From a virus (Duplodnaviria > Caudoviricetes), in the IMG/VR virus record IMGVR_UViG_3300045594_000287, positions 1 to 64,000 of that record: a DNA stretch of 64,000 nt. The stretch is one strand, 5' to 3'. Below, in pieces: positions 4,982-53,714 of the stretch. The notes under the pieces are model-generated. The model did no database searches. It was not told the DNA's origin and saw nothing but the letters and a program-made list of their open reading frames with translations. Position 1 is the stretch's first letter, and every line of letters starts with the position of its first letter. Made by a program: the position numbers and the translations under genes.

Positions 4982-6913
4982 TTAGCCTACGACGCTTTCG
5001 AAATAGGCCATGCCATCAACTGGCACGCCATTCTCATCTACATCGTATGAAGGAGCAACCTGTTCTTTGGCAGGCTTGCAATAACGACCACTGAGACGAC
5101 CGGTGCGGCGAACCTCATGTTTTGCACTGGACACTTTCATATCTAACGGCTCAACGAACTCGGTATCCTGGCTATCTTTCACGTCAGACATGAGTACGAG
5201 AGCAACCTTATGATTCTTCTTCACCTGCACCCCATGCTTACCGGAGACTTTCATCTCAAGTTCGCAGGAAATCATGCCGGTAATTTTGCCAGTCTTATTA
5301 CGGTACATTGCCTGAATCGATTCCGGATTATCAGAGCCCAAAGAAGTTCTGAATTTACCGATCATCTTTCCATCAACGACAATTGCATCGTGAAGATCTT
5401 TGCCGTCTTGCTGCTTACGATATGGAATCAATGTAACTTCCTTGTCTTCCATCTTTTTCATAACAGCTGTAAGATTTTCATCTCCCCAATCACTCCCCTT
5501 AGTGATAAAGCAGAGAACAGATCCATCCGGATCTTCAGGAGCGAGAACTTCTTTGATGAGCTTAGAAGCTACAAGATGTCCATTCTTGTTCTTGCGAATA
5601 GTGAATTCACCATCAAGCTCATCATCGGCAGCTTTTGCGAATTTGCCATCATCGCCATAAGCCTCGCCGAAAACGAACTCTGCCACATCGCCTTCCTTGA
5701 AGGTGCAGCTGATGAGTTTGTCCTCGGTATACTTTGCAACCTTGTCTTCATCCTTGAAGATCTGCAGCACGAATGCGAGGAACTCCTTATCCAAGACGCC
5801 ATGCGCATAACTGGAATACTGACTGTCTTCTTTGTTATCTCCAACCATGATGACAGATACCAGTACGGCAGCCCGCATGGATGCACTGAGATCGCGCATC
5901 TGGAATCTCAGAGTCTTGGCAAGGTAGGTATAGAAGGGTGCCATATCCTTTTTGAGATCCTTGATATGAGCCTCAGCCTTATAGCGATCAGGATACCGAT
6001 CACGAATATCTCTGATGCGAGTTGCCTGCACATTAGAAATAGAGCTATAAGCCTGTTTTAAGAACTCTGCCACTTGGCAAGCGCCGGTATGTTTTGGCAC
6101 GACAGATGTTTCCATCCATGCCAAAGTACGCTGGCTGAACTGCTGCTTCATCTTTGCAAACTCCTTTGCAAACGTGCAGCCTGCCTTCAATGACAGAATC
6201 CGGAGATCCTGCTGGAAGTCATGAATAACACGCACATCCTGTTTTGTGCCATCCTGAAGCTTCTTGACAGTCGTATATGACGGTCTCTCATCACATACGT
6301 ACTTAACACCGCAGAATCTCTTCCAGCCATGCTCCTTGCGGCCGATAAACTCATCGTGATCCGGTTCAAGGATGATTCTCTTCTTATCCTCATCCATGCA
6401 ATGACGCCAATCGACTTCGAAATTGAAATCGTTGTCGCTGCGTTTCCTTGACATCATTTTGACATTGCTCATGGCCTGGGCATAATCAAGGCAGAGTACC
6501 GGATCACTTGTCTTGAATGTATCAATCGACATCTCCTGCCCCATGCGGCCATTTGCATGAAGATCAGTTAATGCTGCCATGCAATTGTTCTTCGTAAGCT
6601 TCATCTCACGAGAATTCGCGACAATTACATCCGACTTCAAGATATCAATTCCCTGTGTGGGAATGTTATTATCTTGAACTTCCGGATTGCCAAGCGGAGA
6701 CACATATTCTGTTTCTCCACCGTTATTGCCAAAGCCAATATTGAAGATGGCTTTGACATCCTCCGGAACTTCATCTTTTGCAGCATTAAGCTGTACTAAT
6801 GCCTCTGAGAACGGAAGATGACGTACCGTTACTCTACCGACATCCAGGCTGTCATTAGCCAGGATATTTTTGAGGGCTTGGTTTCCAATATTGTAGTTCA
6901 TAACGTTTTCCAT
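4982..6913 (-). CDS. C-terminal part of a split YonO/RdRP-like RNA polymerase (643 aa)
   Basis: NDSLDVGRVT resembles the post-catalytic N..LG.I helix, and QEMSIDTFKT resembles the (A/V)(V/I)D(F/Y)AKT motif of cellular RdRPs and YonO. Own AGGAGG RBS; directly downstream of the DFDGD gene. Confidence 0.7.
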   Translation of the reverse strand: MENVMNYNIGNQALKNILANDSLDVGRVTVRHLPFSEALVQLNAAKDEVPEDVKAIFNIGFGNNGGETEYVSPLGNPEVQDNNIPTQGIDILKSDVIVANSREMKLTKNNCMAALTDLHANGRMGQEMSIDTFKTSDPVLCLDYAQAMSNVKMMSRKRSDNDFNFEVDWRHCMDEDKKRIILEPDHDEFIGRKEHGWKRFCGVKYVCDERPSYTTVKKLQDGTKQDVRVIHDFQQDLRILSLKAGCTFAKEFAKMKQQFSQRTLAWMETSVVPKHTGACQVAEFLKQAYSSISNVQATRIRDIRDRYPDRYKAEAHIKDLKKDMAPFYTYLAKTLRFQMRDLSASMRAAVLVSVIMVGDNKEDSQYSSYAHGVLDKEFLAFVLQIFKDEDKVAKYTEDKLISCTFKEGDVAEFVFGEAYGDDGKFAKAADDELDGEFTIRKNKNGHLVASKLIKEVLAPEDPDGSVLCFITKGSDWGDENLTAVMKKMEDKEVTLIPYRKQQDGKDLHDAIVVDGKMIGKFRTSLGSDNPESIQAMYRNKTGKITGMISCELEMKVSGKHGVQVKKNHKVALVLMSDVKDSQDTEFVEPLDMKVSSAKHEVRRTGRLSGRYCKPAKEQVAPSYDVDENGVPVDGMAYFESVVG

Positions 6914-6962
6914 GATATATTCCTCCTAATAAATAGAGCCGCCCATTGCTGAGCGGCCAACC

Positions 6963-9026
6963 TTATAATGCTGCCTCGAAAGCCTTGTCATCAGCTTTTC
7001 TCTTGACATCCGTATCAATCACGACAGCAAGAGGAGTTACATTCCAGAGAATATCGACAAAGCCGATCTCTCCGTCACTTTCCTCCCCATATCCAACACA
7101 TGCATCCCCATCGAAGTCCATGCCTGCCAGCATATTCTTCAACTCTTCCAGAGCTGGGATGGCAATGTTACCACCGGTCATTTTGCCAGCCTGCTCGATA
7201 ATCAACTTCTTCTGATAAGCAGTCAACTTCTCAGAAGCATTGACTCTGCGAGCATACTCAGCTAAAGAAACCGGTACAGCCTTTGCAAACTCTCTGAAAT
7301 GCATCTTTGGATATTTCACCAGAATCATGCGATTCCATTTAGCTGCATTGGCAACTGGGCTGATCACTTCACATTCTCCATCCTTGGAATACGTGAGAAT
7401 CCGTGCACCGAAGTCGGCGGCAGGATCTGTCGTCAATTTCATATATGCACCAGGCACAGTTACATTCAAGCGATTGAATGCAGTGACCAATCCTTTGCAA
7501 GCATTGTCAATATTACTACGGAAAATCGGTGCATAGTTTTCCAAAACGAATTTTGGAGCAATGCGTCCGATCAGTTGTGGAATATCGACATTTCCACTAC
7601 TGATCTCCGCATACGTCGGTGCGGATCCTTCATCTGCAAGCAGACGCTCACGAATGCTCTCAATCATGGCACGCATCTTACGCTCATACCAGACCTTCGT
7701 GGCTACCGGATCGATAACCATTGCAGACTGGATGCTCTGCGACGATGCGTTTGCGCCAGATTCTGGATGATGTTCAGTATGAGACATATCCAATGCATTC
7801 AGGCCCGACATCCTTGTCAAGTCAAACGGAGCCTTGAGCCCATTGAGATCAGTAGCATAATCCGCTGCTTCCTCGTCGCTCTTCCTTGAATCGACAATGC
7901 GCACCCACTTCCCTGCATATGCGCCTTCTTTGCCTTTAGAAAACACCGTCTTTGTGAACTTCGCCTGGATTTTATCATCTACCTCGTCACGATAGATAGT
8001 AACCATTTTAGTATGGTCAACAGAAATGCGATAATTGACAAACTCTTTCAAGTAAGCCCTCATCACGCACTGAGCCATGACTTTGCAGGTCCAAGGCCTG
8101 GTCTGCAGCGAAATGCCAGCTGGTGCATCAGGCATAACGAAATACCTCTTCGGATCTATCGCAGTAAGGCACTCTGCAACGAATTCCGATGCGACCATTG
8201 CGAATCCATCCTTGAACTCATTTCCAAGATCATCCTTGATCTTGCCCATGTATACAACGAAATTGCCTACATTAAGGAGTGGGGTGCTGCTGGCGCAGAA
8301 CGCTGATAAACGAACATTGCCCTGAGCTACTTCTTTTGGAGAAGCAACGCATGCCAACTGGCAGAGCTGATCACTTGCACCATATGTGACCTTGCTCCAG
8401 ATTGCCTTCCTATCAACTCCAGGAAGGTTGCATGCCGGCATAGTCAGTGTGCTCAACTTAAGCTGGCCTGCTGTACCGCGTGCACAGCTGTCTACATCAT
8501 TGTAGACAATAACGTCTTCTTTAACGTTACCATCGGCATTGAATACCTCAGACAATGGGGCTTCGTTATCCTTTTCTTCACCGAAGCGAAGAAGATCAAT
8601 AAGAACGCCATCATTCTCTGGATTAACCGTGTAGAATCTTTCGTTTACACCATCCTCACGATCCGGCACACGATAAATAACCTGATCGAGGATATATGCC
8701 ATGGCTTTATTCTGAATGGAAACATCCAGAATACCAACGGTATATCTTTGCACCATCTGTGGGCAATCTGCTTCAGTAGTTGCAGCTACTAAAACATTTT
8801 CCTGCATTGGCAACAAGGACGTCTCCAAACTTGGAGTAACGGTGATCAGCATACGCTGAACGCTGTCCTCATTGAAAACGAGCGACGTAGCCTTAAAGCT
8901 AGTCTCTGGCCGACTAAGTGCAAGACTGCGCATTGCCTCTACCTGGTGGGCAGAGAGCACGACTTTCTTTCCAAGAGCACGCTGCTCCCGGATCTTCTCG
9001 TTGCGATGGCTAATAAACTTACTCAT
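6963..9026 (-). CDS. YonO/QDE-1-like double-psi beta-barrel RNA polymerase, catalytic N-terminal part (687 aa)
   Basis: Ordered motifs FKDGFAM (cf. TDG), LQTRPWTCK (cf. Q.R...K), KYPKMH (cf. K/R-x-P-x-x-H) and AGMDFDGD (DFDGD at nt 7104-7118). Start ATG 9026 with AAGGAGG. Confidence 0.85.
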   Translation of the reverse strand: MSKFISHRNEKIREQRALGKKVVLSAHQVEAMRSLALSRPETSFKATSLVFNEDSVQRMLITVTPSLETSLLPMQENVLVAATTEADCPQMVQRYTVGILDVSIQNKAMAYILDQVIYRVPDREDGVNERFYTVNPENDGVLIDLLRFGEEKDNEAPLSEVFNADGNVKEDVIVYNDVDSCARGTAGQLKLSTLTMPACNLPGVDRKAIWSKVTYGASDQLCQLACVASPKEVAQGNVRLSAFCASSTPLLNVGNFVVYMGKIKDDLGNEFKDGFAMVASEFVAECLTAIDPKRYFVMPDAPAGISLQTRPWTCKVMAQCVMRAYLKEFVNYRISVDHTKMVTIYRDEVDDKIQAKFTKTVFSKGKEGAYAGKWVRIVDSRKSDEEAADYATDLNGLKAPFDLTRMSGLNALDMSHTEHHPESGANASSQSIQSAMVIDPVATKVWYERKMRAMIESIRERLLADEGSAPTYAEISSGNVDIPQLIGRIAPKFVLENYAPIFRSNIDNACKGLVTAFNRLNVTVPGAYMKLTTDPAADFGARILTYSKDGECEVISPVANAAKWNRMILVKYPKMHFREFAKAVPVSLAEYARRVNASEKLTAYQKKLIIEQAGKMTGGNIAIPALEELKNMLAGMDFDGDACVGYGEESDGEIGFVDILWNVTPLAVVIDTDVKRKADDKAFEAAL

Positions 9027-9039
9027 TATGGTTTCCTCC

Positions 9040-9068
9040 TTTAATGGATAGACCACCTATGCTATAAT
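9040..9068 (+). promoter_or_regulatory. sigmaA-type extended -10 promoter P1 (antisense to the early operon)
   Basis: TG-C-TATAAT at 9060-9068; weak -35 TTTAAT at 17-bp spacing. Confidence 0.65.
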
Positions 9069-9105
9069 GAGTAATGCATAGGCGGGGTTAAATGGATAGA
9101 CATAG

Positions 9106-9141
9106 TTAAATGGATGGGACATTGTGCGATGACTTACTCAT
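9106..9141 (-). CDS. Putative leader uORF MSKSSHNVPSI sharing the start context of the RNAP gene
   Basis: AGGAAACCATAATGAGTAAGT is identical to the RNAP start context; stop at 9106-9108. Confidence 0.35.
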   Translation of the reverse strand: MSKSSHNVPSI

Positions 9142-9199
9142 TATGGTTTCCTTCTACCTTGTTTATGTACGAGAATACGGTTGCAGCCATATTCTCACG

Positions 9200-9228
9200 A
9201 GCCGGTTGTTGTCGCAGCCGGCTTTTTT
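9200..9228 (+). terminator. Intrinsic terminator of sRNA 1
   Basis: AGCCGGTTG-loop-CAGCCGGCT plus T run; the stem mismatch is a G-U wobble only on the + strand. Confidence 0.8.
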
Positions 9229-9248
9229 GTGCAAAGAGAAGGATTCCC

Positions 9249-9277
9249 TTGTCTGTAAGGGGTATCAGTGCTATAAT
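9249..9277 (+). promoter_or_regulatory. sigmaA promoter P2
   Basis: TTGTCT-17 bp-TATAAT with extended TG. Confidence 0.8.
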
Positions 9278-9283
9278 GAGCAA

Positions 9284-9383
9284 TGCATAAGTGTCTCCTA
9301 TTGAGTGGGTATGATTAACTATGCAACTGAGAGCGGTATTGCTGTTCTCCACGAAGTCGACTGCTGAGCACAGTCGGCTTTTT
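9284..9383 (+). ncRNA. Putative sRNA 2 (about 100 nt), same 3' architecture as sRNA 1
   Basis: Promoter P2, GAGA..TTCTC hairpin, terminator AAGTCGACTG/CAGTCGGCTT plus T run (9354-9383). Confidence 0.6.
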
Positions 9384-9416
9384 GTGTTACAAGAAGTTAA
9401 TCTCGGCTGCTGTGGT

Positions 9417-9445
9417 TTGAATGTGCCCTTCCGGCATGGTAGTTT
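9417..9445 (+). promoter_or_regulatory. Possible sigmaA promoter P3 (antisense to 9467-9688)
   Basis: TTGAAT-17 bp-TAGTTT with extended TG. Confidence 0.45.
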
Positions 9446-9466
9446 AACGTCATTCCGGACGATAGC

Positions 9467-9688
9467 TTACTGGATCTCGGCAGTGATGGTGTATTCTCCA
9501 TCTTCATAACTCTGGGATACAATCTTCATAGGAGCACCGCTCGTCTGACGGTATACGTCAACAATTGCTGCGCGGCGGGCCATCATCCTCCCCTGAGCAC
9601 CACCCATATTGACCGGTGCCATACCATGACCGACTACGATCATAGCAACGAGAGTAACAACGACTTTGAAACCTTTGAAATTAAACAT
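9467..9688 (-). CDS. Small protein with N-terminal hydrophobic/signal segment (73 aa)
   Basis: ATG 9688 right after the leader repeat RBS; MFNFKGFKVVVTLVAMIVVG. Confidence 0.7.
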   Translation of the reverse strand: MFNFKGFKVVVTLVAMIVVGHGMAPVNMGGAQGRMMARRAAIVDVYRQTSGAPMKIVSQSYEDGEYTITAEIQ

Positions 9689-9693
9689 AACGT

Positions 9694-9730
9694 ACCTCTT
9701 TCTCCCCGTATACGCCGATAGGACAGCAAT
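9694..9730 (-). repeat. 37-bp leader/RBS repeat, copy 1 (ATTGCTGTCCTATCGGCGTATACGGGGAGAAAGAGGT)
   Basis: Identical to 9993-10029, similar to 10243-10276. Confidence 0.9.
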
Positions 9731-9733
9731 CAA

Positions 9734-9814
9734 TTAATGGAGACGCTCTCCATGATCATCAAGATCAAGAAAAGCCTTAATAAATTCCCAAACCTCTTTA
9801 ATAAACTTTTTCAT
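9734..9814 (-). CDS. 26-aa amphipathic peptide MKKFIKEVWEFIKAFLDLDDHGERLH (not in the ORF track)
   Basis: Strong GAGGAGGA RBS; fills the gap between neighbouring elements. Confidence 0.6.
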   Translation of the reverse strand: MKKFIKEVWEFIKAFLDLDDHGERLH

Positions 9815-9828
9815 AACAGTTCCTCCTC

Positions 9829-9987
9829 TTACTTGTTAAGTTTTGCAATGTTTGCTGCCTGCGGATCACCATTCTTCCAAGCATCAGAAGCATCTTCAAA
9901 AGATACATCTTCCTCTGCCTTCACCATGTAGCCAATGGAAGCAGAAATACCAACAGCAGCGATAGCGACAAAAATGTAGATAGCCAT
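9829..9987 (-). CDS. Small membrane protein (52 aa)
   Basis: ATG 9987 after the leader repeat; N-terminal hydrophobic helix MAIYIFVAIAAVGISASIGYMV. Confidence 0.7.
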   Translation of the reverse strand: MAIYIFVAIAAVGISASIGYMVKAEEDVSFEDASDAWKNGDPQAANIAKLNK

Positions 9988-9992
9988 GATAA

Positions 9993-10029
9993 ACCTCTTT
10001 CTCCCCGTATACGCCGATAGGACAGCAAT
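9993..10029 (-). repeat. 37-bp leader/RBS repeat, copy 2
   Basis: Identical to 9694-9730. Confidence 0.9.
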
Positions 10030-10036
10030 AAAAAGA

Positions 10037-10237
10037 TTAAGCGTTTTCGACAATGTAACCACGGAAGATGTAATCACGAATCGTATCCGCGGTTACCTTC
10101 CCAGAGAAGTAGTCGTCAATTACCTTTTCCGTCTCTTTTCTGAGGCGAACAGGGAACTGTCCCATACGACCATTCTCCATAGGCAGCTCATACTGAACTC
10201 TGTAGTTGGATCCCTCAAAATCAAACGAAGTAAACAT
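10037..10237 (-). CDS. Hypothetical protein (66 aa)
   Basis: ATG 10237 after leader repeat copy 3. Confidence 0.7.
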   Translation of the reverse strand: MFTSFDFEGSNYRVQYELPMENGRMGQFPVRLRKETEKVIDDYFSGKVTADTIRDYIFRGYIVENA

Positions 10238-10242
10238 GATGT

Positions 10243-10276
10243 ACCTCTTTCTCCCCGTAGTCAGATAGGACAACAT
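10243..10276 (-). repeat. Leader/RBS repeat, divergent copy 3
   Basis: TGTCCTATCTGACTACGGGGAGAAAGAGGT. Confidence 0.8.
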
Positions 10277-10396
10277 CAGAATAAATACTCTTAACCCCTG
10301 TCTCTCACAGGGACGCCCATTCAACTCCGGTTTTCACGAGGCGCTACCTTAGTAGTTGGGTCGTCGTCTTTTATTTATAGTGCGTGACGTCAGCAC

Positions 10397-10425
10397 TTGC
10401 GTTTACCATAAGTAGGTGATAGAAT
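10397..10425 (+). promoter_or_regulatory. sigmaA promoter P4 (antisense to peptide gene 10426-10578)
   Basis: TTGCGT-17 bp-TAGAAT with extended TG. Confidence 0.75.
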
Positions 10426-10578
10426 TTATCTGTATTGTTCCACCACGACAGTCTGGAAGTTATCACTTCCATCAATAGCTGCAGGCGCCATAAGCACCAT
10501 TGCACCTATCAGTGCCGCCATAACGGCAGCGCCAATTCTGTTGAGGGTACGAGTTTTACCAAATACTTTAATAGTCAT
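10426..10578 (-). CDS. 50-aa single-TM peptide MTIKVFGKTRTLNRIGAAVMAALIGAMVLMAPAAI... (type I toxin-like; not in the ORF track)
   Basis: Translated by hand; AAAGGAG RBS; N-terminus similar to 10714-10851. Confidence 0.7.
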   Translation of the reverse strand: MTIKVFGKTRTLNRIGAAVMAALIGAMVLMAPAAIDGSDNFQTVVVEQYR

Positions 10579-10638
10579 GATTGCATTCTCCTTTCATGAC
10601 GCACTGCCCTAACATATCGTAAGTATGCTAGGGCTTTT
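10432..10638 (+). ncRNA. Putative cis-antisense RNA 3 covering peptide gene 10426-10578 and its RBS
   Basis: P4 upstream; hairpin GCCCTA..TAGGGC plus TTTT at 10606-10638 (one A-C mismatch on this strand). Confidence 0.5.
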
Positions 10639-10665
10639 CCTTATAGAAGGCAGTTTTTATTACCC

Positions 10666-10694
10666 TGGACATGCTCAGGCCCAGCTGTTACAAT
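10666..10694 (+). promoter_or_regulatory. sigmaA promoter P5 (antisense to peptide gene 10714-10851)
   Basis: TGGACA-17 bp-TACAAT with extended TG. Confidence 0.75.
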
Positions 10695-10700
10695 AAGAGA

Positions 10701-10914
10701 TGCAAGATATTGTTTACTGTGCGATACGAGCTAACTGCATAATATGCCCATACCAATCAGCACCTACCAGTGCTGCTACAGTTGCTATAGTATATACAGC
10801 TGCAGTAGCACGGTCTAATGAACGGATCTTGCCTAAAAATTTGATAGTCATGATTGAATCATCCTTTCTTCATGACGCCTTGCCCTAGCGTCCCTATGTG
10901 CTAGGGCTTTTTTT
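10701..10914 (+). ncRNA. Putative cis-antisense RNA 4 covering peptide gene 10714-10851 and its RBS
   Basis: P5 upstream; terminator GCCCTAGC/GCTAGGGC plus T7 at 10882-10914. Confidence 0.6.
10714..10851 (-). CDS. 45-aa single-TM peptide MTIKFLGKIRSLDRATAAVYTIATVAALVGA... (type I toxin-like; not in the ORF track)
   Basis: Translated by hand; AGAAAGGA RBS; leader shared with 10426-10578. Confidence 0.7.
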   Translation of the reverse strand: MTIKFLGKIRSLDRATAAVYTIATVAALVGADWYGHIMQLARIAQ

Positions 10915-11191
10915 GTTCTTTCTTTTCGCTCAAAAGAACTTCATTGAGAACACTACCCGGGGGCTCAAAAGCCCCCATTGATGTTTCATAAAAAGTACCG
11001 GGTCCCTCGATAAATTTTTTATAATTTTCGAATCCCTATAGGCGTTTTCTGAAAATATTTCATAACATTTTTTCTTTTCCTATAAATTTTCAGTATATTC
11101 GGTAAATTTCGGGCGGAGGTAACTTTTTAGATCCCAGATGAAGTACAGAATCTACGAAGCGTAATATTCCTGTATGAGGAGGGAAAAGAAT

Positions 11192-11479
11192 ATGTCAAAA
11201 GTATGGGTTAATGGAAAAGGGCCTGTAGAAGGCTCATTCTCTTTCGAAGTTGCACTTGATGAAACGGCACAGCCGCCTGTATATATCATTGAGGGAGTCT
11301 TTTCGTGTGCTCATGGGTACTATGAAGAGATCGACAGTTTGGTTAACGAGAGGTATCGTCTGGACCGTGTACGCGTGTACAAGGAAGTGTACGGATCCGA
11401 TGAGGATACAATCTTGTATTATTTTCGGGCTGGAGACTACGGAATGAGAGACTTTAAGGAGGAAAAGAAAGATGGCTGA
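11192..11479 (+). CDS. Hypothetical protein (95 aa)
   Basis: ATG 11192 with GAGGAGGG RBS; overlaps the start of the next gene. Confidence 0.75.
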   Translation: MSKVWVNGKGPVEGSFSFEVALDETAQPPVYIIEGVFSCAHGYYEEIDSLVNERYRLDRVRVYKEVYGSDEDTILYYFRAGDYGMRDFKEEKKDG

Positions 11480-12158: not shown

Positions 12159-12175
12159 ATGAAAGTAAAGTAGAT

Positions 12176-12397
12176 GCGACAATAAGTCGCGGGGCAATGG
12201 ATCGTATTCACTGGCTCCCCATGGTTAAGGTATTCATGGTCCTGTTACTGCTAATGGGTAATGCGTGTACTGTATCAATTCAGCGTAAGCTGAAAAGATT
12301 TGAGATGCGCTTCTCCCCTATCTGGCAGCTAAGAGGATCGTAAAGTACTGATACCATTGGGTTTCAGGTATATACGGGGCGAAAAATGCTCTCCGTA
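12176..12397 (+). ncRNA. Candidate structured RNA
   Basis: Intergenic, contiguous hairpins including a roughly 100-nt rod (12238-12339) capped by a GNRA loop (TTCAGC-GTAA-GCTGAA). Confidence 0.5.
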
Positions 12398-12420
12398 GAA
12401 TACAGAAAGGAGTTTACATT

Positions 12421-33750: not shown

Positions 33751-33760
33751 ATAAAAAAGA

Positions 33761-33781: not shown

Positions 33782-33800
33782 TTCAGAAAAGAGGTTAAGC

Positions 33801-45062: not shown

Positions 45063-48000
45063 GTGCGAACATTGAGACAGAATTTTATAAATGACGATTC
45101 AAAGAAAATCGTTGAAAGCAAAGTAAATGATCATATCGGGAAAATCACCAGAAACTCCGTCGAAGAGCAGATCCTTGAAAAAAGCGATAAGACAGATAAA
45201 AATCTGTATAATAAAAATATTGACCAGTGGAGAGAGATTCATGGCGCCGAAATAGCTAATGGACTTCTGAAGTCAACTGACGCGGTTGCGGGAATAAATG
45301 TCAGAGCGATAAAAAATACGCTGACAAACGCTCACAGTTCTCAGATCATAATGAATCCTTCTGAACTTTACGGGGAAACTCGTAAAAGTCGTTACCTCGA
45401 AGCAGACGTAAAAGAAGTCTACGAAAAAATGGGAATGGATGCCTTCGAGCACGTCCTTGACCTGAATGAAACTGGAAGCAAATACTTTGTAGGAAAAACT
45501 GCAACCAGTATTGCATTCCAGCATACTAACCGTGGTGTAAAACAGAACTATGACAGAATGATGGCCGGAATCAAAAACTCCGAAGAAAAAGGCCTGTTCG
45601 TAGACTGGGATACAGAAACCATGAGCGGAACTAATAAATTTGGAAAACAAATAGTCGACCAAATGACAGAGTTTACGTTCAAAGTTGCAAATTACGATGA
45701 CGGATCTATTGTAAAAGGACGTTCCTACGGCTCGATCATCGGTGCCACGGAAGCACAATACAATGACTACTTGAAAAAAATTGAACGCTATGAAAATGGT
45801 GGATCGCTTTCAAATTTAGATAGAGTTGAACTTAACCGCTTAGCTTTGATGGGTAAAAGCAAGGTCAAGGAAACCGAAAGCGGCATCCATAATTACTCCT
45901 ATTTCGCTGGTGCGGAAGAAGTAGCTGAAAACCGTTCAGAGGATATGCGTGCCGGCCTCGAGCAGTTATTTGGTATAGGTAAAGCTCAGCAAGCAAAAGG
46001 CGCCGTAGAAGAATATGGCGGGCAGAAAATGTTTGCCTGGGAGAAAAAACTATTCCAGGGCTTAGATGAAATCATTCAAAATGATCTCACTGCAGTCGGA
46101 CACAATACACTCACATTCGATAACGGCGTTATGCTTCATCAGTTGCAGCATGGAATGTGGTCTGCAGGCGGCAAGGCATATGCTGACCAAATGCTTAAAG
46201 CTACCAATGGATTGCATTTTGAGCATGAGAATGATACTATCGCGATGATTCGTCAATCCGTTCCAGATCGTCTTCAGATTTATCGCAATGCCGACGGTAC
46301 GTTAAACCAAGCAGCAATGCAGTACAACAAAGAACATGGTCTTACACTATTCCAGCAGGAAGCGATTCAGAATGCAATGAATAGTGACTTCTATGCTTCT
46401 ATTGGTGCTGCTCATACGTCAGATGTCGACGTACAGGCAAATGCTATGATGTACGCTTCAAATAAATTGAAGCTCAATACGGAAGAATCGTTCTTCAAAG
46501 GAATGCCGGAGTCTGCTCCATCGATCCAGCTGACTGGAGGAAGTAAGCAGCTACTGTATGCAATGGAAGGCGGCGGCATAGAATATAAGGGACTGCTGGG
46601 TTTTGTAACAGATCCATTGACTGGAGATATTCGCACATCTGATAAGTATCGGATGAGTAAAGTACCTACGGGCGGAGAAATGGCTTCAGAAGTAAACAAA
46701 GACTTCTTTGCCACTGGCAACATTCACAAAGGTGTATCATACACCATAAGCAATGCAACAAAAGTGGAGACGTCAGACGAGTTCCGCGACCTTATCGGGA
46801 AATATAGGCCGGGGATGGATGTCCGCAGTCTGGTAGCCGTACAACTTATGCCGGTATCCAATTCAAAAACAATGCGGGCAAAAACACCTTACACTTTGAT
46901 TGGATCCATGACCGATGTGCAAGACTATATCAATCATACTTTTTTGCATACTGGACATGCCGTTGAAGACTCCCAGGGACATAGAACCTGGACTGCCAAT
47001 GGCATTCCGGAAGAATCGAGACGACTTCTTCAGGTAAGAGAATTTGCCAACGACGGTGTCCATGCCGGATTTAAGGATTATTCTCTCGAAGACCAGCTTG
47101 CTGAAAGCTCCTATCGTCTTACGAATGAATCTGCTGCCAGAGTAGTCCGTGCGCATGAACTGAAAAAAGACGTTGGCGTATTACGATACGTTCAGGATAT
47201 GGATAAGTATGCCCGGGAAAACGCTATCGATCCGACTGATGAATATCAGATGGAAAATATGCGGCAAAAATTCCGCGACAGCGTATTCAGCCGTTCAAAA
47301 AGCATCGAATCCAAAATTCGCAGTGGAAAAGGGTACGAAGCAGAAGAAATGGTTGGAACGTTCCACGACTATTTCGGGTATATAGATCGTGATACGAAAA
47401 ATCCAATGGTATGGTCAGATACGGTCATGTCAGCTCTGGATCGCGAGGGATATGTTCGTAAAAACCAGCAAGTGATTTCCGGCGCTATTAAACATGCCTA
47501 TGCAAGAGCAGGCGAGTCTGTTACTGATCAAGACATTTCTCATATGACTGCCCTTCAGAAAAAGAACAAAGAAGCTTCCGCCTACTATAGAATGTACATG
47601 GAGTCTGCTACAGATGCAGCTATCCGTAAATTTGGATCAGGCCGGCCCGTAGGGGAGCATCGGATGGGTATCCATACATACGAACTCAACCAGTTTGAGT
47701 TTGACATGAATGGTTACAAAGGGAATTTCAATCCAGACAATGATATATTTAGTGTCCATCTCGGTGAAAATGGCAATACGATGGTCAATCGTTTGCTGCG
47801 TCATCAAGGCTTGCGCACAGACATATCTGATGAAGCAAAGATTGCCGAGCTGCGTAGATTTCAAAAATTTATTGGTGGATCCGAAACTCTCAGTGAGCTG
47901 AATTCAACCAGAAGAGAACTTCTGGAAAAAAACAACTTAATCAACATTGGTGAAGATACAATAGACTCTGCTGCAACGAAGATTATAACCCCGCTGCAGA

Positions 48001-51000
48001 ACTCTCGTCAGTACCAGCCGGCAGGCGGTCGTATTACTCCTACGCTGAAATACGAGCTTGCCGCTTCCATGGAGAACATGGGACTTGATAACCCTGAGGA
48101 GGTGTTGTCAAAAGCAGATAAAACGATCCCCAAGATTTCTATATATAGTTCTAAAACTGGCGCAGACAGCTATGCACACGATATCGTTAACAGCGTATTG
48201 TTCAACGATCTTGATGGGAAAACACTCGATGAAGTAAGAGACGACCTCCAGGAGTATGGATATACTCGTGAGCAGGCAGAAAAAATCATCGCTATGAGAG
48301 AGCAGCGCAAGGCTGATGCGCAGCCGTTCATGAAACGACTGATCGAAAGTGTTCAAAAAAATGGAGGCTCAATCGGATATAACGCAGAAGATCGTGAGGT
48401 GTTCGTAAGCCATAAAGGGAAGACAACAAAATTAAATAATCTTCCCATGGATGAATACTCCAATGGAATGTTCTATACCAGGGTGAATAATTCAAAAGTC
48501 CATGCATCGTCAGGATTCTACGCTACTGGAAAGTATAAAGATGGAAAAGGAACTTTGAAGTTCGGTTCATCGTTATTGAAAGCTGGAGACAGCGTAGGCT
48601 GGATGGATACAGCTATCGCCAGAGGTGCTGAAAACGGAGACCTTGGAGATGAGGTAAACAGCGTCCTTAGTGGGTATGCGAAGGTTATTCGTGAAAATTC
48701 TTCTATCATGGAAGAAGATCTTCAGGACATGCGTGGGCAGTTTGACATTAACTATCGCGAAGTAGCCCCGTTTATCGAAGATAACTGGGATCAGATATCC
48801 CAAAATATGGTATTTGATGATTCGCCTCAGGGGCAGATAAACCAGATTCTAAGAGATGCTGCGATGGACGGTAAACTTAGTGGTGACCGGCTTAACTTTG
48901 AGTTGAATTCTGCCATCATCCAGAATGCAGACAACATCTTGCCAGTAATGGCACAAAAATATGGTGGAAGCTATGCACAGACCATTATGTCTGGTTTTTC
49001 TCTCAATATGAAACATGCTGGAGAACTTAAGGCCAGCGCAACAGAAATAACGAATTTTGGCGACGACTTAGATAGTGGTAAGCGTGACGTAGCAAGCTTC
49101 ACAGGACGTGCTTACAAATTCCGCGCGGATGGAAAAGTTGATGGTGTTCGTATAGGACAATCTGTAACATCTGAGATAGCAGGTAATTATGCAGAAGACG
49201 CCGGCGAAGGAATCTCATACGGTGTAGATACAACACTTCGTACTGGCCGTGTACGAATGACAACCAGCGGGCTGCGTAATCTCGTAAATAGTGCAGACAT
49301 CGACAATGACTATGTACGAGACGTGTTGACTGGAATACATTTGGACGAAGGATCTGCTGCTGCCGATCCTAGACTTATAGATCAGTATTTCACTAGACGT
49401 AAGTCTATGCAGAGAATCGCAATGCATCGAATCTTTGACATGGACAAAGATACAATCGATAACCTTAGCACGAAGCAGCATACTGCTCCAATTCTAAACA
49501 TTGACCCTAAAACGGGTAATATCAGTTTCACGTATTCGAACGGCCTATTCGTAGAAAGCACAGACTTGTCGGGAGAAAGCCCGATTAGCGTCAAAGGATT
49601 CCAGGGTGCAAAAGAAGAAGTTGCAATCAAAGAAGCTGGTTTGTTCAACGTTGGCTTCTTCTCGAAGAAGGGTAATCTTTTTGCTGACCAGCAGAGCGTA
49701 ACAGATCTTTTAAATAGCAAGAAATACCATGGCCGCATCGTGAATGCAGAAGATTCGCGTCTAGAGGCTCTTAACGTCCTGAATGAAGTATACAACGCTT
49801 CGTTCTACAATCTGTCACTGGATGCCAACGGAAATACAAAACTCGGAGAACAAGCAGAAAAAGGCATGTATAATGCCCTATTTGCTACGCCTGGAGCAAT
49901 AGATAAACGTGTAGGAAGCACATTAGACCGACTAGGCCTTAGCAGCATGAAGGATCTTGTGCCGAGGTTGGATTTCATCGAATCCCTAAACGCGAAAGAT
50001 ATATCAAAAACTCCATTGGGAGCAATGATCAGTGCAAAAGCTGGACGTAACGTATCTCATGATGAGATTCTAAAAGTAATCGGCAGTGAATTTAACAGTG
50101 CGAAAAGCATGTACGATGCAATGATGGAAGAGCGCTATAAGCCATGGGATACGCTCGAAAGTATTGCTCGTAATGCTAATGTTATAAAAAATGGAGAAAC
50201 GGTCCATGCTTTCAGCAACACGATTGCTGCAGAGAATAAGCATTTAAACGCACGATCCGTCTTGAGAGTTACAGATAACCTCCTCGAAAAATATAATGGG
50301 GATGCCCAAAAAGTCGCATCATTGCTGCAAGAAGCAATGCCAGGGATTCACGTTGGTGGCAGCGGGCGGCTGTATCACAGTGGAGATATTGATATTGATG
50401 CTGTGATGGAAATAGCGAATAAGGAACTTGACGGCAACGTAAGAACCTTCTACACAAATGGAAACAAAACCATTTCAGCAGAACAATTCAGCATGCTTCC
50501 TGAAGGCGAAAAAGGAAAATGGAAAAAGAACGAATCCAGTTATGCATACACTGAATTAATGCAGCTCCCAGACCAGGACCGTGAGCGCTTAAGTGACGAG
50601 AATGGAGTTGGCAAGACCCTAAAGATGGATCATCGTACCAAGGCAATGCTTGATACCCAGGTCTACAGCAAAGAAGGTCTTAAGAATGTTCGTAATGGCT
50701 TTGTTGATTCAATGGGCAAAGAAGCTGGCGAAGCTCAGTATCGTAAGTATTTTATGGATGCCCAAAACGGAAAACTTGTGGCTGAAGGACTTAGCGACAA
50801 GATAAACGATTCAAGGTATTATGATCCAGGAGATAAACGCGTTGCTATCGATGGAGGACAAGATTTAACTAAAAAAGACAAAGAAGAAATAAGCAAGGCA
50901 AAGGAAGAGCTTAGAAAATCTGGAATAAACAAAAAGATTGCTGACCAGATAATCGAAGAAGCTCGAACCGCCGGAGTTAAAGACGTTGGCGTAGGGGCTA

Positions 51001-53714
51001 TTAAGAAGCAATACTCTTACAATATGTATAGCGTTGCAGATGACTTCAACAGAAAAGGCGGACTAACTAAAGATGACATGATCAAAAAATGGGGGTACAA
51101 AGAACCTATTTCCTTGACCAGCTTAATCACCGGCGCAAGCGATACTGTCGGACTCGAAAAATCTATGTATGGATCGAATACGCTTATAGATTTACATATA
51201 CCTGAACTGGGTGACCATCAGATATATGATGATGAAGCCCATCGTTATATGGCATTGCCTTGGGCTGATCCTAAAACAATGGGATCTTCAGATGAACTTG
51301 CTAGAACAGCATATCAGAAAAAAATTGCGGGCATGCAAAATGTTGTAAATCGAATGCGTCGAACAGCAGATGAAAACAATGGCCAAATCACAGATAAGGA
51401 AAAAATTGAAATCCAAGCAGATCTAAAAAATCGAGTAACCCAAACACATGAAGCGATTGCCGCTCAACTTGTACAGAAGAAAGGCTTAATGGCTCAAGCT
51501 TCAGAAGCTCACTTCGGAGATGCTGGTTTCAACAAAGCTTATGGTATACAGCTCGAAGGCAACGAAAAAGGATTCTGGGGAAACATAAACTTTGATGGGC
51601 TAAATATCTCAAAAGAAGCTGGGAAGGGAGAAGCCGGATTAGAGATTGATTACCAAGTGGCTGGAATGAAAGCGAGGAATCGTTTCTATAACGATAAATA
51701 CTTCAAGTCATTAGGCCTGGATGAAGAAACGACAAAAGCTATCCAGGAAAATACATTTGATCGCTTGAACAACGGCGGAACATTATCATTGAATATCCGT
51801 AACCCACAGGGTTACGATAAATCGACCAGCGCCGCAGCAATGTATTTTGACAAATCAATAAAAGGTAACACACTTGCTACATCTGCAGTGATGTGGGAAT
51901 CCAAAAAAGGCGATTATGACTCAGATGAAGCTGACTTCAAAATCCTTAAAGGCCGTGCCACTATCGTTGGGAATAATGGCAAGCAAACGGTAACTGATAT
52001 TGACTATGCTACTTATCAGACGCTGCAGCAGGCCAAAGAAAAAGGCATAATCAAAGATATATCGATGTCCGAAGAAGGACTTAAACTCTTCGCAGACACT
52101 AAGAAATCAATCATGTATAACGCCGCAGACCGGAATAAAGCTTCAAGGTCTGAACTCGGGAATACTGAATTGGGGCAGGGAGAGTACAACTACAGTAAGT
52201 TATACAATGAGTCTCTTGAAGGCAATGGCAACGTTGATAAGGTTGGCCACCATCATTTAACAACGGGGCTTAGAGAGCTTGCTCCTGAACGAAAAATGCA
52301 GCTGGCAAATATCTATAAAGATACTGAGCAAGCAGTCATTAATAAGGTTGGCCAGGAAGCATACGACAAACTGGATAACGCATCTAAGCGATCTGAATAC
52401 TTCAATTATGTCTCTGAAAATATGACTGGAGAAGCTTCAAACGAAGCGCGTAAAGCTGCAAGCTTTAATTTCAGAGTAGAGCGAAGCGCTCAGGATGCCG
52501 AAGCACGAGCGCGTAAAGTTGCTGCCGGCGAAATGAATGACGCAGTGTTCAAGTATTTCCGGGTAGCTGAGCAGGCTAAATTCTCTGACGGGTCAAAAGT
52601 CTATAGCGGTGAAGATCTGAAGGCAATGGCTCAGGTTCATACTGCATTGAACGAGGCGTTCTTATCTCCTAAGAACGAAAAAGGTGTTGGCAACATCTCA
52701 ATTGCTTCACAGTTGAGAGATGCTTTCCAGGACGTGTATCATGCAGCCAGGAGCAATAGCTTAAATACAGAAGCCAGAGAGAAAGCAAGAAACAAACTCA
52801 TTGACATCATTGACCCGATCATTCAAGGCAGGCGCGGGAAAGAAGTTGCAAAGATCCCGGGGATGGAACTTGATGCTGAGGGCAAGGCTACTGAGGCTGG
52901 AGCAAGGCATGCAGCAGAAATATTCGCATCCGTAGCCGACAGAGTAAGTTTAGCCGGGGTAAATATGAACACCTTGAATATGGGTGTTACTAGCGGGGCT
53001 ACCTCAGACGGAATCATGCACGCCGCATACCAACGTGCCAGTGACAATATGATCATGGATATGGCTGAACATCAGGCAAACATCCAGAGAAAGATAAATG
53101 GTAATGGATACAGCTCAATAGAGGAATCTACTGGCATTCACGCCTTCAGAGGATACGAAAAAGAAAATGCCGAACTCATGAGAGAAAATGCAGCTGAGGC
53201 AGCACGCAAATTAAAAGACTATGAAAATGGGAAGGCTCCAAACTTATCCGATGCCGTACCTGTCAGTAGAGGATTGGGGAAAGAAATCGGAGAAGCCTTA
53301 TCACACATGAAGATTACTGGTAAAGGCTTTGCAAAAGGCATGCTGGGAATTGCAGGTTCTCTTCTTGTTTCTGGGTATGCCAACAATCCGAGTGCCCCAG
53401 CAAGCAGCCAGCCTGCTCCGGCTGAGACTCAAGCTCAAGGAGCAACCGACTCAGCCAATGGGATGTCTGAAACTCAAGTGCCAAATCTATCTGACGGAAA
53501 TGTGAATGTATTGAGGGGCGGTCCGAAGTCAGGATACGTAATCAATATCAATGCCACATCGCCAAGAGGACAATCAGCAGCACAAAACGCCATTAGCCAA
53601 GCGATTGGAGGAGCTGTTCCAATGAACTCTTCTATAAATGTTGCCACCAATACATCGTACAAAGATAAAATAGACCAATTCCAAATTGGCAAAATCATAG
53701 AAGGAATGTTTTAA
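45063..53714 (+). CDS. Giant putative virion RNA polymerase (fused beta/beta'-like DPBB domains) with N-terminal DEDDh 3'-5' exonuclease
   Basis: Exonuclease: DTE (183-185), GHN..TFD (346-353), H451-x4-D456. RNAP: HLDEG (about 1428), K1593-x6-KG, QKKG (about 2139), R2246-NP, GDYDSD (2283-2288). The start may be TTG 45072 (GAGGTG RBS). Confidence 0.75.
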   Translation: MRTLRQNFINDDSKKIVESKVNDHIGKITRNSVEEQILEKSDKTDKNLYNKNIDQWREIHGAEIANGLLKSTDAVAGINVRAIKNTLTNAHSSQIIMNPSELYGETRKSRYLEADVKEVYEKMGMDAFEHVLDLNETGSKYFVGKTATSIAFQHTNRGVKQNYDRMMAGIKNSEEKGLFVDWDTETMSGTNKFGKQIVDQMTEFTFKVANYDDGSIVKGRSYGSIIGATEAQYNDYLKKIERYENGGSLSNLDRVELNRLALMGKSKVKETESGIHNYSYFAGAEEVAENRSEDMRAGLEQLFGIGKAQQAKGAVEEYGGQKMFAWEKKLFQGLDEIIQNDLTAVGHNTLTFDNGVMLHQLQHGMWSAGGKAYADQMLKATNGLHFEHENDTIAMIRQSVPDRLQIYRNADGTLNQAAMQYNKEHGLTLFQQEAIQNAMNSDFYASIGAAHTSDVDVQANAMMYASNKLKLNTEESFFKGMPESAPSIQLTGGSKQLLYAMEGGGIEYKGLLGFVTDPLTGDIRTSDKYRMSKVPTGGEMASEVNKDFFATGNIHKGVSYTISNATKVETSDEFRDLIGKYRPGMDVRSLVAVQLMPVSNSKTMRAKTPYTLIGSMTDVQDYINHTFLHTGHAVEDSQGHRTWTANGIPEESRRLLQVREFANDGVHAGFKDYSLEDQLAESSYRLTNESAARVVRAHELKKDVGVLRYVQDMDKYARENAIDPTDEYQMENMRQKFRDSVFSRSKSIESKIRSGKGYEAEEMVGTFHDYFGYIDRDTKNPMVWSDTVMSALDREGYVRKNQQVISGAIKHAYARAGESVTDQDISHMTALQKKNKEASAYYRMYMESATDAAIRKFGSGRPVGEHRMGIHTYELNQFEFDMNGYKGNFNPDNDIFSVHLGENGNTMVNRLLRHQGLRTDISDEAKIAELRRFQKFIGGSETLSELNSTRRELLEKNNLINIGEDTIDSAATKIITPLQNSRQYQPAGGRITPTLKYELAASMENMGLDNPEEVLSKADKTIPKISIYSSKTGADSYAHDIVNSVLFNDLDGKTLDEVRDDLQEYGYTREQAEKIIAMREQRKADAQPFMKRLIESVQKNGGSIGYNAEDREVFVSHKGKTTKLNNLPMDEYSNGMFYTRVNNSKVHASSGFYATGKYKDGKGTLKFGSSLLKAGDSVGWMDTAIARGAENGDLGDEVNSVLSGYAKVIRENSSIMEEDLQDMRGQFDINYREVAPFIEDNWDQISQNMVFDDSPQGQINQILRDAAMDGKLSGDRLNFELNSAIIQNADNILPVMAQKYGGSYAQTIMSGFSLNMKHAGELKASATEITNFGDDLDSGKRDVASFTGRAYKFRADGKVDGVRIGQSVTSEIAGNYAEDAGEGISYGVDTTLRTGRVRMTTSGLRNLVNSADIDNDYVRDVLTGIHLDEGSAAADPRLIDQYFTRRKSMQRIAMHRIFDMDKDTIDNLSTKQHTAPILNIDPKTGNISFTYSNGLFVESTDLSGESPISVKGFQGAKEEVAIKEAGLFNVGFFSKKGNLFADQQSVTDLLNSKKYHGRIVNAEDSRLEALNVLNEVYNASFYNLSLDANGNTKLGEQAEKGMYNALFATPGAIDKRVGSTLDRLGLSSMKDLVPRLDFIESLNAKDISKTPLGAMISAKAGRNVSHDEILKVIGSEFNSAKSMYDAMMEERYKPWDTLESIARNANVIKNGETVHAFSNTIAAENKHLNARSVLRVTDNLLEKYNGDAQKVASLLQEAMPGIHVGGSGRLYHSGDIDIDAVMEIANKELDGNVRTFYTNGNKTISAEQFSMLPEGEKGKWKKNESSYAYTELMQLPDQDRERLSDENGVGKTLKMDHRTKAMLDTQVYSKEGLKNVRNGFVDSMGKEAGEAQYRKYFMDAQNGKLVAEGLSDKINDSRYYDPGDKRVAIDGGQDLTKKDKEEISKAKEELRKSGINKKIADQIIEEARTAGVKDVGVGAIKKQYSYNMYSVADDFNRKGGLTKDDMIKKWGYKEPISLTSLITGASDTVGLEKSMYGSNTLIDLHIPELGDHQIYDDEAHRYMALPWADPKTMGSSDELARTAYQKKIAGMQNVVNRMRRTADENNGQITDKEKIEIQADLKNRVTQTHEAIAAQLVQKKGLMAQASEAHFGDAGFNKAYGIQLEGNEKGFWGNINFDGLNISKEAGKGEAGLEIDYQVAGMKARNRFYNDKYFKSLGLDEETTKAIQENTFDRLNNGGTLSLNIRNPQGYDKSTSAAAMYFDKSIKGNTLATSAVMWESKKGDYDSDEADFKILKGRATIVGNNGKQTVTDIDYATYQTLQQAKEKGIIKDISMSEEGLKLFADTKKSIMYNAADRNKASRSELGNTELGQGEYNYSKLYNESLEGNGNVDKVGHHHLTTGLRELAPERKMQLANIYKDTEQAVINKVGQEAYDKLDNASKRSEYFNYVSENMTGEASNEARKAASFNFRVERSAQDAEARARKVAAGEMNDAVFKYFRVAEQAKFSDGSKVYSGEDLKAMAQVHTALNEAFLSPKNEKGVGNISIASQLRDAFQDVYHAARSNSLNTEAREKARNKLIDIIDPIIQGRRGKEVAKIPGMELDAEGKATEAGARHAAEIFASVADRVSLAGVNMNTLNMGVTSGATSDGIMHAAYQRASDNMIMDMAEHQANIQRKINGNGYSSIEESTGIHAFRGYEKENAELMRENAAEAARKLKDYENGKAPNLSDAVPVSRGLGKEIGEALSHMKITGKGFAKGMLGIAGSLLVSGYANNPSAPASSQPAPAETQAQGATDSANGMSETQVPNLSDGNVNVLRGGPKSGYVININATSPRGQSAAQNAISQAIGGAVPMNSSINVATNTSYKDKIDQFQIGKIIEGMF

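Follow-up and report, generated by a model that had tools for sequence, protein, structure and literature searches.

The window analysed here comprises the first 64 kb of the 106,938-bp virus contig IMGVR_UViG_3300045594_000287. A leftward gene block occupies positions 409-10,851, and the remainder of the window is read almost wholly rightward. Two candidate RNA polymerases (RNAPs) are encoded in this stretch: one is split over two neighbouring genes of the leftward block, and the other appears to be part of a giant protein of 2883 amino acids in the rightward tail module. An array of small genes and a leader with candidate small RNAs (sRNAs) lie upstream of the split polymerase genes. A preliminary description of the same DNA had read these elements as a two-polymerase transcription programme gated by antisense RNAs.

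The first gene of the split enzyme, listed as open reading frame (ORF) ORF697, has its true start at the ATG at position 9026, which is preceded by an AGGAGG ribosome-binding site (RBS). It encodes 687 amino acids (hence ORF687; 6963-9026, minus strand), a length shared by the database copy P0001. The translation-initiation region of the gene (9017-9040, minus strand; AGGAGGAAACCATAATGAGTAAGT) is repeat D5. ORF687 is the candidate large N-terminal subunit of a non-virion RNAP (nvRNAP) and is predicted to contain both double-psi beta-barrels (DPBBs) and a DFDGD metal-binding loop (D637/D639/D641). Its motif KYPKMHFRE...AGMDFDGDA follows a K-Y-P-K...D-F-D-G-D signature, with an (R/K)-x-P motif ahead of the DxDGD loop, in which G635, D637, D639 and D641 are nearly invariant across an alignment of 46 sequences. 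The AlphaFold2 model built from this alignment (predicted local distance difference test, pLDDT, 91.6; predicted template modelling score, pTM, 0.89) has the two-barrel fold that the preliminary description had expected. A Foldseek search with the model placed QDE-1 and RDR2 at the top (E ~1e-9), followed by the virion RNAP of crAss phi14:2. VIA-align superposed the model on residues 487-1041 of QDE-1 (Z 20.3, 431 residues, 3.6 A) and on RDR2 (Z 19.1), and further matches were obtained with P23-45 gp96 (Z 10.5), crAss gp66 (Z 8.9) and the catalytic barrel of E. coli beta-prime, residues 345-489 (Z ~8.3, 2.4 A). The confident model places ORF687 in the two-barrel (DPBB) RNAP superfamily, and since the alignment with QDE-1 spans residues 487-1041, the N-terminal subunit holds both barrels.

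The candidate C-terminal subunit, ORF643 (643 amino acids; 4982-6913, minus strand), is separated from ORF687 by a gap of 49 nt, and no family or fold could be assigned to it. BLASTP aligns it to residues 696-1217 of the fused protein P0025 (E 8e-31) and to residues 675-1183 of the fused P0031 (E 1e-19). Because ORF643 matches the second half of these single-chain relatives, the polymerase is genuinely split, as had been claimed. By alignment, ORF643 is the predicted equivalent of the part of QDE-1 that follows residue ~1041, namely the post-catalytic C-terminal domains; an Atlas feature search with the C-terminal half of P0025 gave no usable match. A word-indexed search with ORF687 returned only three proteins, and an exhaustive profile search returned 332 cluster representatives. 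Two architectures occur in this family: proteins of ~650-750 amino acids, which end just after the DxDGD loop, and proteins of ~1200-1500 amino acids, which are matched over their first half. L001 (687+651 amino acids), L002 (719+658) and L005 (680+728) all keep the gene pair in split form; indeed, it was seen in every same-lineage relative examined, and fused forms were found only in more distant relatives.

Ten of the 46 family members match the Pfam family RdRP (RNA-dependent RNA polymerase; PF05183) below the gathering threshold, with a best E of 6e-4; ORF687 of the window has no match to PF05183, and a Pfam scan of the fused relatives yielded just one faint RdRP match. Comparison of the 46-sequence alignment with SPbeta YonO by hhalign gave E 0.033 and a probability of 1.5% over 209 columns, with three signature motifs in the same order. 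The enzyme is best filed in a QDE-1/YonO-related clade and not in the YonO family itself. The earlier label "YonO/RdRP-like" is supported at the level of this clade; similarity to YonO itself is not significant.

The second candidate, a putative virion RNAP (vRNAP), is the giant protein encoded at 45063-53714 (plus strand), which has homologues of 2740-3323 amino acids. Its gene sits between the sheath and tube genes on one side and the baseplate and fibre genes with a lysin-domain giant on the other, in agreement with its earlier assignment to the tail genes. The family was analysed in alignments of 9 and 14 sequences, with homologues at 19-38% identity. A beta-prime-type signature, R2246-N-P...G-D2284-Y-D-S-D2288, is located at 51798-51926 (plus strand); residues R2246, P2248, S2254, D2284, D2286 and D2288 (RNPQGY...GDYDSDE) are invariant in 14 homologues, and the spacing from R-x-P to DxDxD is 38 residues. 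The family profile has a sole match in the PDB, the beta-prime-N subunit gp55 of the phiKZ nvRNAP, which is weak (E 0.1) and falls on HRNPTLQRGS...NADFDGD. The polymerase-like module was delimited to residues 1400-2590 (49260-52832, plus strand), and an AlphaFold2 model of this region (pLDDT 65) was compared with known structures. Among the PDB matches found by Foldseek, the top 50 are all bacterial beta-prime subunits (E 3e-4 to 6e-3, template modelling (TM) score ~0.1). A wide VIA-align search with the same model was swamped by helical bundles matching model residues 1016-1191; a second look, in which unrelated matches to the C-terminal helical bundle were set aside, gave 23 consecutive RNAP largest subunits (Z 6.1-6.5), collinear with model residues 599-1191. 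These comprise the AR9 nvRNAP (Z 6.5), Pol I, II and III, and archaeal and bacterial enzymes. A shape search of the ESM-Atlas with the model returned nothing above a TM of 0.16.

There is hence good evidence that the giant carries a beta-prime-like module. A beta-like barrel may precede it, as suggested at the level of motifs by a candidate beta-type lysine pair, K1593...K1600 (GNTKLGEQAEKG; 49839-49862, plus strand), which is invariant in the 14 homologues and lies in a part of the model with low pLDDT. Of the earlier designation of the giant as a single-chain beta/beta-prime-like enzyme, the beta-prime half is supported by the matches and the signature; the model is mediocre, and the beta half consists of motifs. 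With this reservation, the proposal of two different DPBB-type RNAP candidates in one phage holds for both genes, given the confident model of ORF687 and a signature that is invariant in 14 homologues of the giant.

Two further regions of the giant are conserved. A motif set resembling that of DEDDh exonucleases is found in the N-terminal region (45609-46430, plus strand); all three Exo motifs (DxE, Nx2-3(F/Y)D and Hx4D) are present (D183-x-E185, N348..D353, H451..D456), and their columns are invariant in the alignment of 9 homologues. This region had no match in Pfam, NCBIfam or the PDB, and hhalign against E. coli DnaQ gave nothing. The most conserved part of the family is formed by the last ~100 residues (53500-53714), a Gly-rich hydrophobic stretch that includes G-Y-V-I-N-I..., and this C-terminus may be a signal for packaging or for insertion into a membrane. 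In BFVD, the model of the polymerase region matched A0A172Q021_2 of the cultured Acinetobacter phage vB_AbaM_ME3 (E 1.3e-4) and A0A075BUT7_2 of Microcystis phage MaMV-DC (E 0.02); on these model matches, chunks of uncharacterised giant proteins in both phages may harbour related polymerase modules.

The two enzymes occur together. All three IMG/VR contigs that encode the closest homologues of the split RNAP (G001-G003, 25-35% identity) also encode a giant of ~3000 amino acids, and these giants match the polymerase module with E 2e-40, 6e-38 and 7e-16. In G002 the order of products (2195-2960-~2830 amino acids...1661-719) parallels that of the window (2146-2883-2755...1665-716), so that synteny is conserved in this relative, the one examined. 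The pairing of split RNAP and giant is a trait of the lineage. The alignments of the two families have no similarity detectable by hhalign, and the enzymes are therefore not recent paralogues. Neither ORF697 nor the giant module was found by tblastn in 50,697 GenBank phage records. Among ~185,000 species genomes, a scan with degenerate patterns, which has limited sensitivity, recovered relatives of the split enzyme in one metagenome-assembled genome (MAG) only. This MAG, UMGS1894 (labelled Gemella), contains two different relatives, L018 and L019, on contigs of 208 kb and 23 kb with equal coverage; both probably stem from jumbo phages and were binned with bacterial sequence. Because the family is essentially absent from bacterial genomes, a prophage or temperate lifestyle is argued against, and the latency or superinfection immunity proposed in the preliminary description finds no support in this distribution.

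Upstream of the RNAP genes, six small genes preceded by a Shine-Dalgarno sequence (9467-10851, minus strand; 73, 26, 52, 66, 50 and 45 amino acids) were recovered by a filtered ORF scan. All ORFs with a credible Shine-Dalgarno sequence between 9060 and 10,900 lie on the minus strand, and several encode a hydrophobic helix. The RNAP gene of L001 is likewise preceded by small genes on its own strand. The segment at 9.07-10.9 kb thus holds a set of small coding genes and is not the plain antisense array that had been described. Repeated cassettes precede the small genes (D1/D3, TGTCCTATC...ACGGGGAGAAAGAGG, and D2/D4). Other contigs from wastewater join 10032 to 10561, skipping 528 nt, return from 10697 to 10540, or join 9039 to 9339. 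Since cassettes are skipped or duplicated in this way, the early region is hypervariable, and the variation is likely caused by recombination between the repeated upstream cassettes. Two of the small genes (10426-10578 and 10714-10851, minus strand) encode paralogous membrane-type peptides of 45-50 amino acids. Each is overlain by a plus-strand pair of a promoter-like and a terminator-like element, at 10399-10635 and 10666-10915; the site at 10666 and the terminator at 10882 come from the scan, and the site at 10399-10427 and the hairpin at ~10598-10630 were identified by eye. This bracketing from the opposite strand resembles type I toxin-antitoxin loci. The units at 10399-10915 fold just as well on the minus as on the plus strand.

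The RNAP gene is separated from the small genes by a leader of 410 nt, which contains no credible ORF and two plus-strand units. Each unit starts with TGcTATAAT (9060 and 9269), followed 85-140 nt further on by a strong hairpin and a T-run. Candidate sRNA1 (9060-9232, plus strand) consists of an extended -10 box recognised by eye (-10 box proper at 9063-9068), a structured body and an intrinsic terminator (9199-9230); candidate sRNA2 (9249-9390, plus strand) consists of TTGTCT-17-TGcTATAAT and a terminator at 9353-9388. The plus strand of sRNA1 (9073-9232) has a minimum free energy of -56.1 kcal/mol (z -4.3), which none of 200 shuffled sequences equalled, and sRNA2 has a z of -3.4 on the plus strand versus -1.4 on the minus strand. 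In control windows elsewhere in the genome, z values of <= -4 are occasionally reached. A two-state leader switch on the minus strand over 9005-9165 was considered and rejected, as this strand folds no better than shuffled sequences (z -0.8). sRNA1 further bears a 24-nt copy of the RNAP initiation region (9132-9155), and as plus-strand RNA this segment can pair with the RBS and AUG of the RNAP gene by 23 Watson-Crick pairs and one G-U pair. Runs labelled as RNA were available as contigs only, three of the four probably being DNA; neither strand nor level nor transcript ends can be read from them, and stretches they leave uncovered are uninformative. The sole true metatranscriptome with the region contains two read-length pieces. 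One of these, 151 nt long (9073-9223), begins 5 nt past the -10 box and stops within the stem of the terminator; it is no more than a hint, as contigs give no strand and DNA carry-over is possible. From their sequences, sRNA1 and sRNA2 look like real structured sRNAs. A scan of 8800-11600 against Rfam gave chance-level snoRNA matches only. In the relatives L001, L002 and L005, either antisense promoters lie ahead of divergent small ORFs or it is the sense strand that folds more strongly.

Promoter-like sites are not enriched in this region. In 8800-11600, 4 sigma-70-like sites were found, compared with 5.5 +/- 1.7 expected. Terminator-like hairpins exceed chance (8 versus 1.9 +/- 1.6 expected), and seven of the eight are on the plus strand. 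Four to five sigmaA-type promoters had been described as opposing the leftward operon; only two scanned plus-strand sites fall within 9.07-10.91 kb, and two more, with weak -35 boxes, were identified by eye. The leftward and rightward modules diverge from an AT-rich intergenic region (10852-11191), which contains no sigma-70-like site for the leftward genes. The consensus scan likewise found none on the minus strand in 10915-11160, in line with the earlier statement; the promoter consensus of the host may differ from the one scanned. In the same region, at 10980-11110, words of the type TATAAWTTTTC are repeated on the plus strand, and these are candidate non-host promoters because the vRNAP promoters of P23-45 are AT-rich (PMC10770324). 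Taken together, the antisense gate is the weakest part of the preliminary description: the two leader units are structured on the plus strand only and one coincides with the piece at 9073, but the other units have no such asymmetry, and the layout varies between strains and is not conserved.

PHROG scans identified a large terminase (15351-17120), a portal (19159-21267), a major head protein (24335-25615) and a tail sheath (29968-32991), and because of these matches the phage is assigned to the myovirus type. A crAss-like podovirus identity was rejected, since the matches, including the tail sheath, are of the myovirus type. Three giant ORFs (2146, 2883 and 2755 amino acids) lie downstream of the sheath and tube region. 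The 2146-residue neighbour 5' of the polymerase-bearing giant (38517-44957, plus strand) belongs to no family and has a counterpart of 2195 amino acids in G002; by position alone it is a tape-measure candidate. The 2755-residue neighbour on the 3' side (53863-62130, plus strand) matches PHROG 20474 ('endolysin', E 1.8e-177) over residues 1986-2442, and this lysin-type domain makes it probably a tail-associated cell-wall hydrolase. In the leftward cluster, downstream of the RNAP genes, a Dda/Pif1-like helicase of superfamily 1 is encoded (3032-4870, minus strand; PHROG 325, E 2e-78; Pfam PIF1, E 2e-25). Near-identical DNA was found in metagenomes from bioreactor sludge and wastewater and not in gut or rumen samples, where the preliminary description had suggested a search for synteny. 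CheckV assigns a completeness of 46-54% to relatives of 118-125 kb, and contigs with giant homologues reach ~260 kb; therefore, the contig is probably a jumbo-phage fragment that represents only ~45% of the genome.

Three copies of a palindromic element, ATTTAGTC-N4-GTCGACTAA, are present at 33760-33782, 53750-53772 and 53786-53808. All are late and intergenic and lie just 3' of terminators, one before gene 33801 and two before the gene of the 2755-residue protein, and the 9-mer GTCGACTAA has no other occurrence in the 107-kb contig; the palindrome may be a late promoter or a site for a regulator. In windows of 160 nt, strong RNA structure is predicted on the plus strand at 12000 (z -5.5) and on the minus strand at 6600 (z -6.4), and the strongly structured stretches extend over 12000-12420 (plus strand) and ~6600-6760 (minus strand). 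A hairpin-bearing gap of 262 nt without a called ORF (12159-12420) follows 3' of gene 11472-12158.

We propose, with a probability of about 0.58 for the whole, that the phage encodes two evolutionarily unrelated two-barrel RNAPs, that the giant is ejected into the cell and transcribes the early leftward cluster, that the split enzyme then serves the late genes, and that the leader sRNAs form an accessory layer. On the model of P23-45, N4, phiKZ/AR9 and crAss-like phages, synthesis of the giant would occur late and be followed by packaging with the tail and delivery into the cell, where its residues ~1400-2590 would act as a polymerase of the single-chain beta/beta-prime-like type, with DYDSD as catalytic loop. 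The ejected enzyme would transcribe the cluster of small genes, the two genes of the split RNAP and the helicase gene, for which the consensus scan found no host-type promoter. The nvRNAP composed of the 687- and 643-residue subunits could then take over the rightward genes of the middle and late phases, in the manner of YonO in SPbeta. One or two short host-type plus-strand RNAs from the 410-nt leader might base-pair with the RBS and start codon of the split RNAP gene and so lower its translation in this strain; such damping would be an accessory, strain-variable layer and not part of the core. What the analysis supports directly is how ORF687 folds, that the enzyme is split, that the motifs are conserved and that the two polymerase genes co-occur, with synteny; from these and the analogies we infer the virion location, the catalytic activity, the division of labour and the function of the sRNAs. 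A cascade from vRNAP to nvRNAP is plausible in this phage. The same scheme in its fullest form, in which an ejected protein combining a DEDDh exonuclease with a single-chain beta/beta-prime RNAP starts the cascade, an enzyme of the other major two-barrel clade, permanently split after its catalytic loop, continues it, and host-made antisense sRNAs with a decoy RBS throttle translation of this second enzyme, is quite unlikely to hold in every detail. A phage of that kind would be the first to draw in turn on both major clades of two-barrel RNAPs, separated by an RNA checkpoint.

Several observations weigh against this proposal. The model of the giant's polymerase region is mediocre (pLDDT 65, pTM 0.41), with low pLDDT in the catalytic loop itself, and its TM scores to beta-prime are ~0.1 with Z values of only ~6. 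No structural or profile match of the giant to any beta subunit was found, so that the beta-like barrel consists of motifs only. Scans of Pfam, PHROG and NCBIfam and phmmer searches against the PDB gave no match for ORF687, ORF643 or the giant. The argument from a missing host promoter is weak, because the host may use a consensus other than the one scanned, and a search by k-mer enrichment for a phage-promoter motif shared within either module returned only the cassette repeats and a weak GGGTAAT word. As the contig probably covers only ~45% of the genome, further transcription genes may lie outside the sequence at hand. With regard to the accessory layer, strain variants skip 9040-9338, including the sRNA1 segment, and the sRNA layout is not kept in L001, L002 and L005, whose leaders differ.

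Some of these points would also fit a phage in which only the split QDE-1/YonO-clade enzyme works and drives the late genes just as in SPbeta, host RNAP transcribes the early genes from non-consensus promoters, and the giant is a structural or ejection protein with an inactive or non-transcriptional module. The catalytic loop of the giant is a variant (DYDSD, not DxDGD) and poorly modelled, library scans place the protein in no family, and the BFVD matches of its model include 'minor tail protein' and tape-measure entries; moreover, the YonO precedent requires no virion enzyme (PMC5467207), and the sigma-70 scan is not decisive, as the host may use other promoters. Nevertheless, we consider this explanation unlikely: the strict invariance of R-x-P...D-x-D-x-D and of the lysine pair down to 19% identity argues for a maintained active site, the structural and profile matches of the giant are consistently to beta-prime, and the giant co-occurs with the split enzyme. 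Alternatively, both enzymes could be active with their labour divided differently, the split enzyme being made first by host RNAP to serve the middle genes, and the giant acting late or within the capsid or tail, for example in priming, in coupling to DNA ejection or in RNA synthesis together with the exonuclease-like N-terminus. Such an arrangement would make use of the additional conserved regions of the giant (the DEDDh-like motifs at 183-456 and the Gly-rich C-terminus), the division of labour is purely inferred in any case, and two-barrel enzymes include DNA polymerases such as PolD (PMC10770324). It is nonetheless improbable, given that the top structural matches of the giant are RNAP beta-prime subunits and not PolD, and that the characterised giant polymerase-bearing virion proteins of N4, crAss phi14:2 and P23-45 all act first after ejection (PMC10770324).

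The idea of the preliminary description that host RNAP produces four to five antisense RNAs, which silence the two-polymerase cascade and thereby cause latency or superinfection immunity, has to be judged separately from the accessory role that we assign to the leader sRNAs. In its favour are the excess of terminator-like hairpins (8 found, 7 on the plus strand, versus 1.9 expected), the extended -10 boxes TGcTATAAT at 9060 and 9269, the far better folding of sRNA1 and sRNA2 on the plus than on the minus strand, the 24-nt complementarity of sRNA1 to the RBS and AUG of the RNAP gene, and the metatranscriptome piece at 9073-9223. The promoter-like sites, however, are not above chance, most of the supposed array is minus-strand coding sequence, the units over the small membrane-protein genes have no strand asymmetry, and windows with z <= -4 exist elsewhere in the genome too. 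In addition, strain variants skip 9040-9338, divergent small ORFs or sense-strand structure take the place of these units in relatives, no Rfam family matches, and the contigs from RNA runs show neither strand nor transcript ends. Together with the near absence of the RNAP family from bacterial genomes, which speaks against a temperate lifestyle, this makes the silencing model very unlikely.

The antisense RNAs of other phages provide a frame for the leader units. Lambda OOP, P22 sar and P1 c4 are short antisense RNAs made by host RNAP, which end at an intrinsic terminator and bind by base-pairing where translation of a regulatory gene begins. Here, by contrast, the target would be a phage RNAP subunit, and the candidate element varies between strains and is absent from relatives.

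For the polymerases, the closest conceptual precedent is the Thermus phage P23-45, in which the vRNAP gp96, fused to the tape measure, transcribes the gene of the nvRNAP gp64, and this enzyme in turn transcribes the later genes; many viruses encode two RNAPs (PMC10770324). Both that phage and the one described here have two two-barrel RNAPs, one in a giant tail-module protein and the other smaller and encoded early. The enzymes of P23-45, however, are paralogues of one clade, whereas those of the window have no detectable similarity and find their nearest structures in QDE-1/RDR2 and in beta-prime, respectively. Furthermore, the phage studied here is a myovirus, its giant is encoded by a separate gene beside the 2146-residue neighbour, and the small enzyme is split. 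A survey of viruses with two RNAPs lists phiKZ-like and crAss-like phages together with a small number of metagenomic siphoviruses and the giant viruses of eukaryotes, and a word search for DYDSD in its supplementary files gave nothing (PMC10770324). An overview of jumbo phages describes YonO-like and multisubunit-type enzymes in different phage groups.

SPbeta YonO resembles the split enzyme as a small phage two-barrel RNAP of an RdRP-related clade with a DxDGD-type loop, and the late transcription proposed here has been shown for YonO, which transcribes the late genes of SPbeta (PMC5467207). It is a single chain of 839 amino acids, in contrast to two subunits that total 1330. The RNAi polymerases QDE-1 of Neurospora and RDR2 of plants are the best structural matches over both barrels (420-431 residues), and ORF687 ends at the equivalent of QDE-1 residue ~1041; identity is only 10-14%, however, and they are eukaryotic single-chain enzymes that act on RNA templates. 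The phages phiKZ and AR9 likewise have a host-independent two-RNAP programme in a large myovirus, and their beta and beta-prime genes are split (PMC7598289, PMC7824862). Both of their enzymes are multisubunit beta/beta-prime types of 4-5 polypeptides, unlike the single 2883-residue chain and the enzyme of another clade considered here. crAss phi14:2 gp66 and the N4 vRNAP also carry a polymerase module in a protein of >2000 amino acids, with structural genes and other giants alongside; gp66 belongs to the QDE-1-like clade, the N4 enzyme is T7-like, and both phages are podoviruses, whereas the giant of the window is nearest to beta-prime. The two enzymes of N4, phiKZ/AR9 or P23-45 are of the same kind or paralogues, while here unlike clades appear to be paired. 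Of the suggestion that this combination is without known precedent, the pairing of unlike clades therefore remains distinctive, and the concept itself is preceded by P23-45: the system is a variation on a known virion and non-virion strategy with two unannotated polymerase families, and not a categorically new one.

If the proposed cascade is correct, this would be a further case of polymerase delivery via the tail. The giant would then give structural and evolutionary studies a new, compact RNAP of the single-chain beta/beta-prime type, and the natural series of split and fused relatives would help to understand why a two-barrel polymerase can be cut directly behind its catalytic loop. Both polymerase families lie outside Pfam, PHROG and NCBIfam and are thus unannotated in current pipelines.

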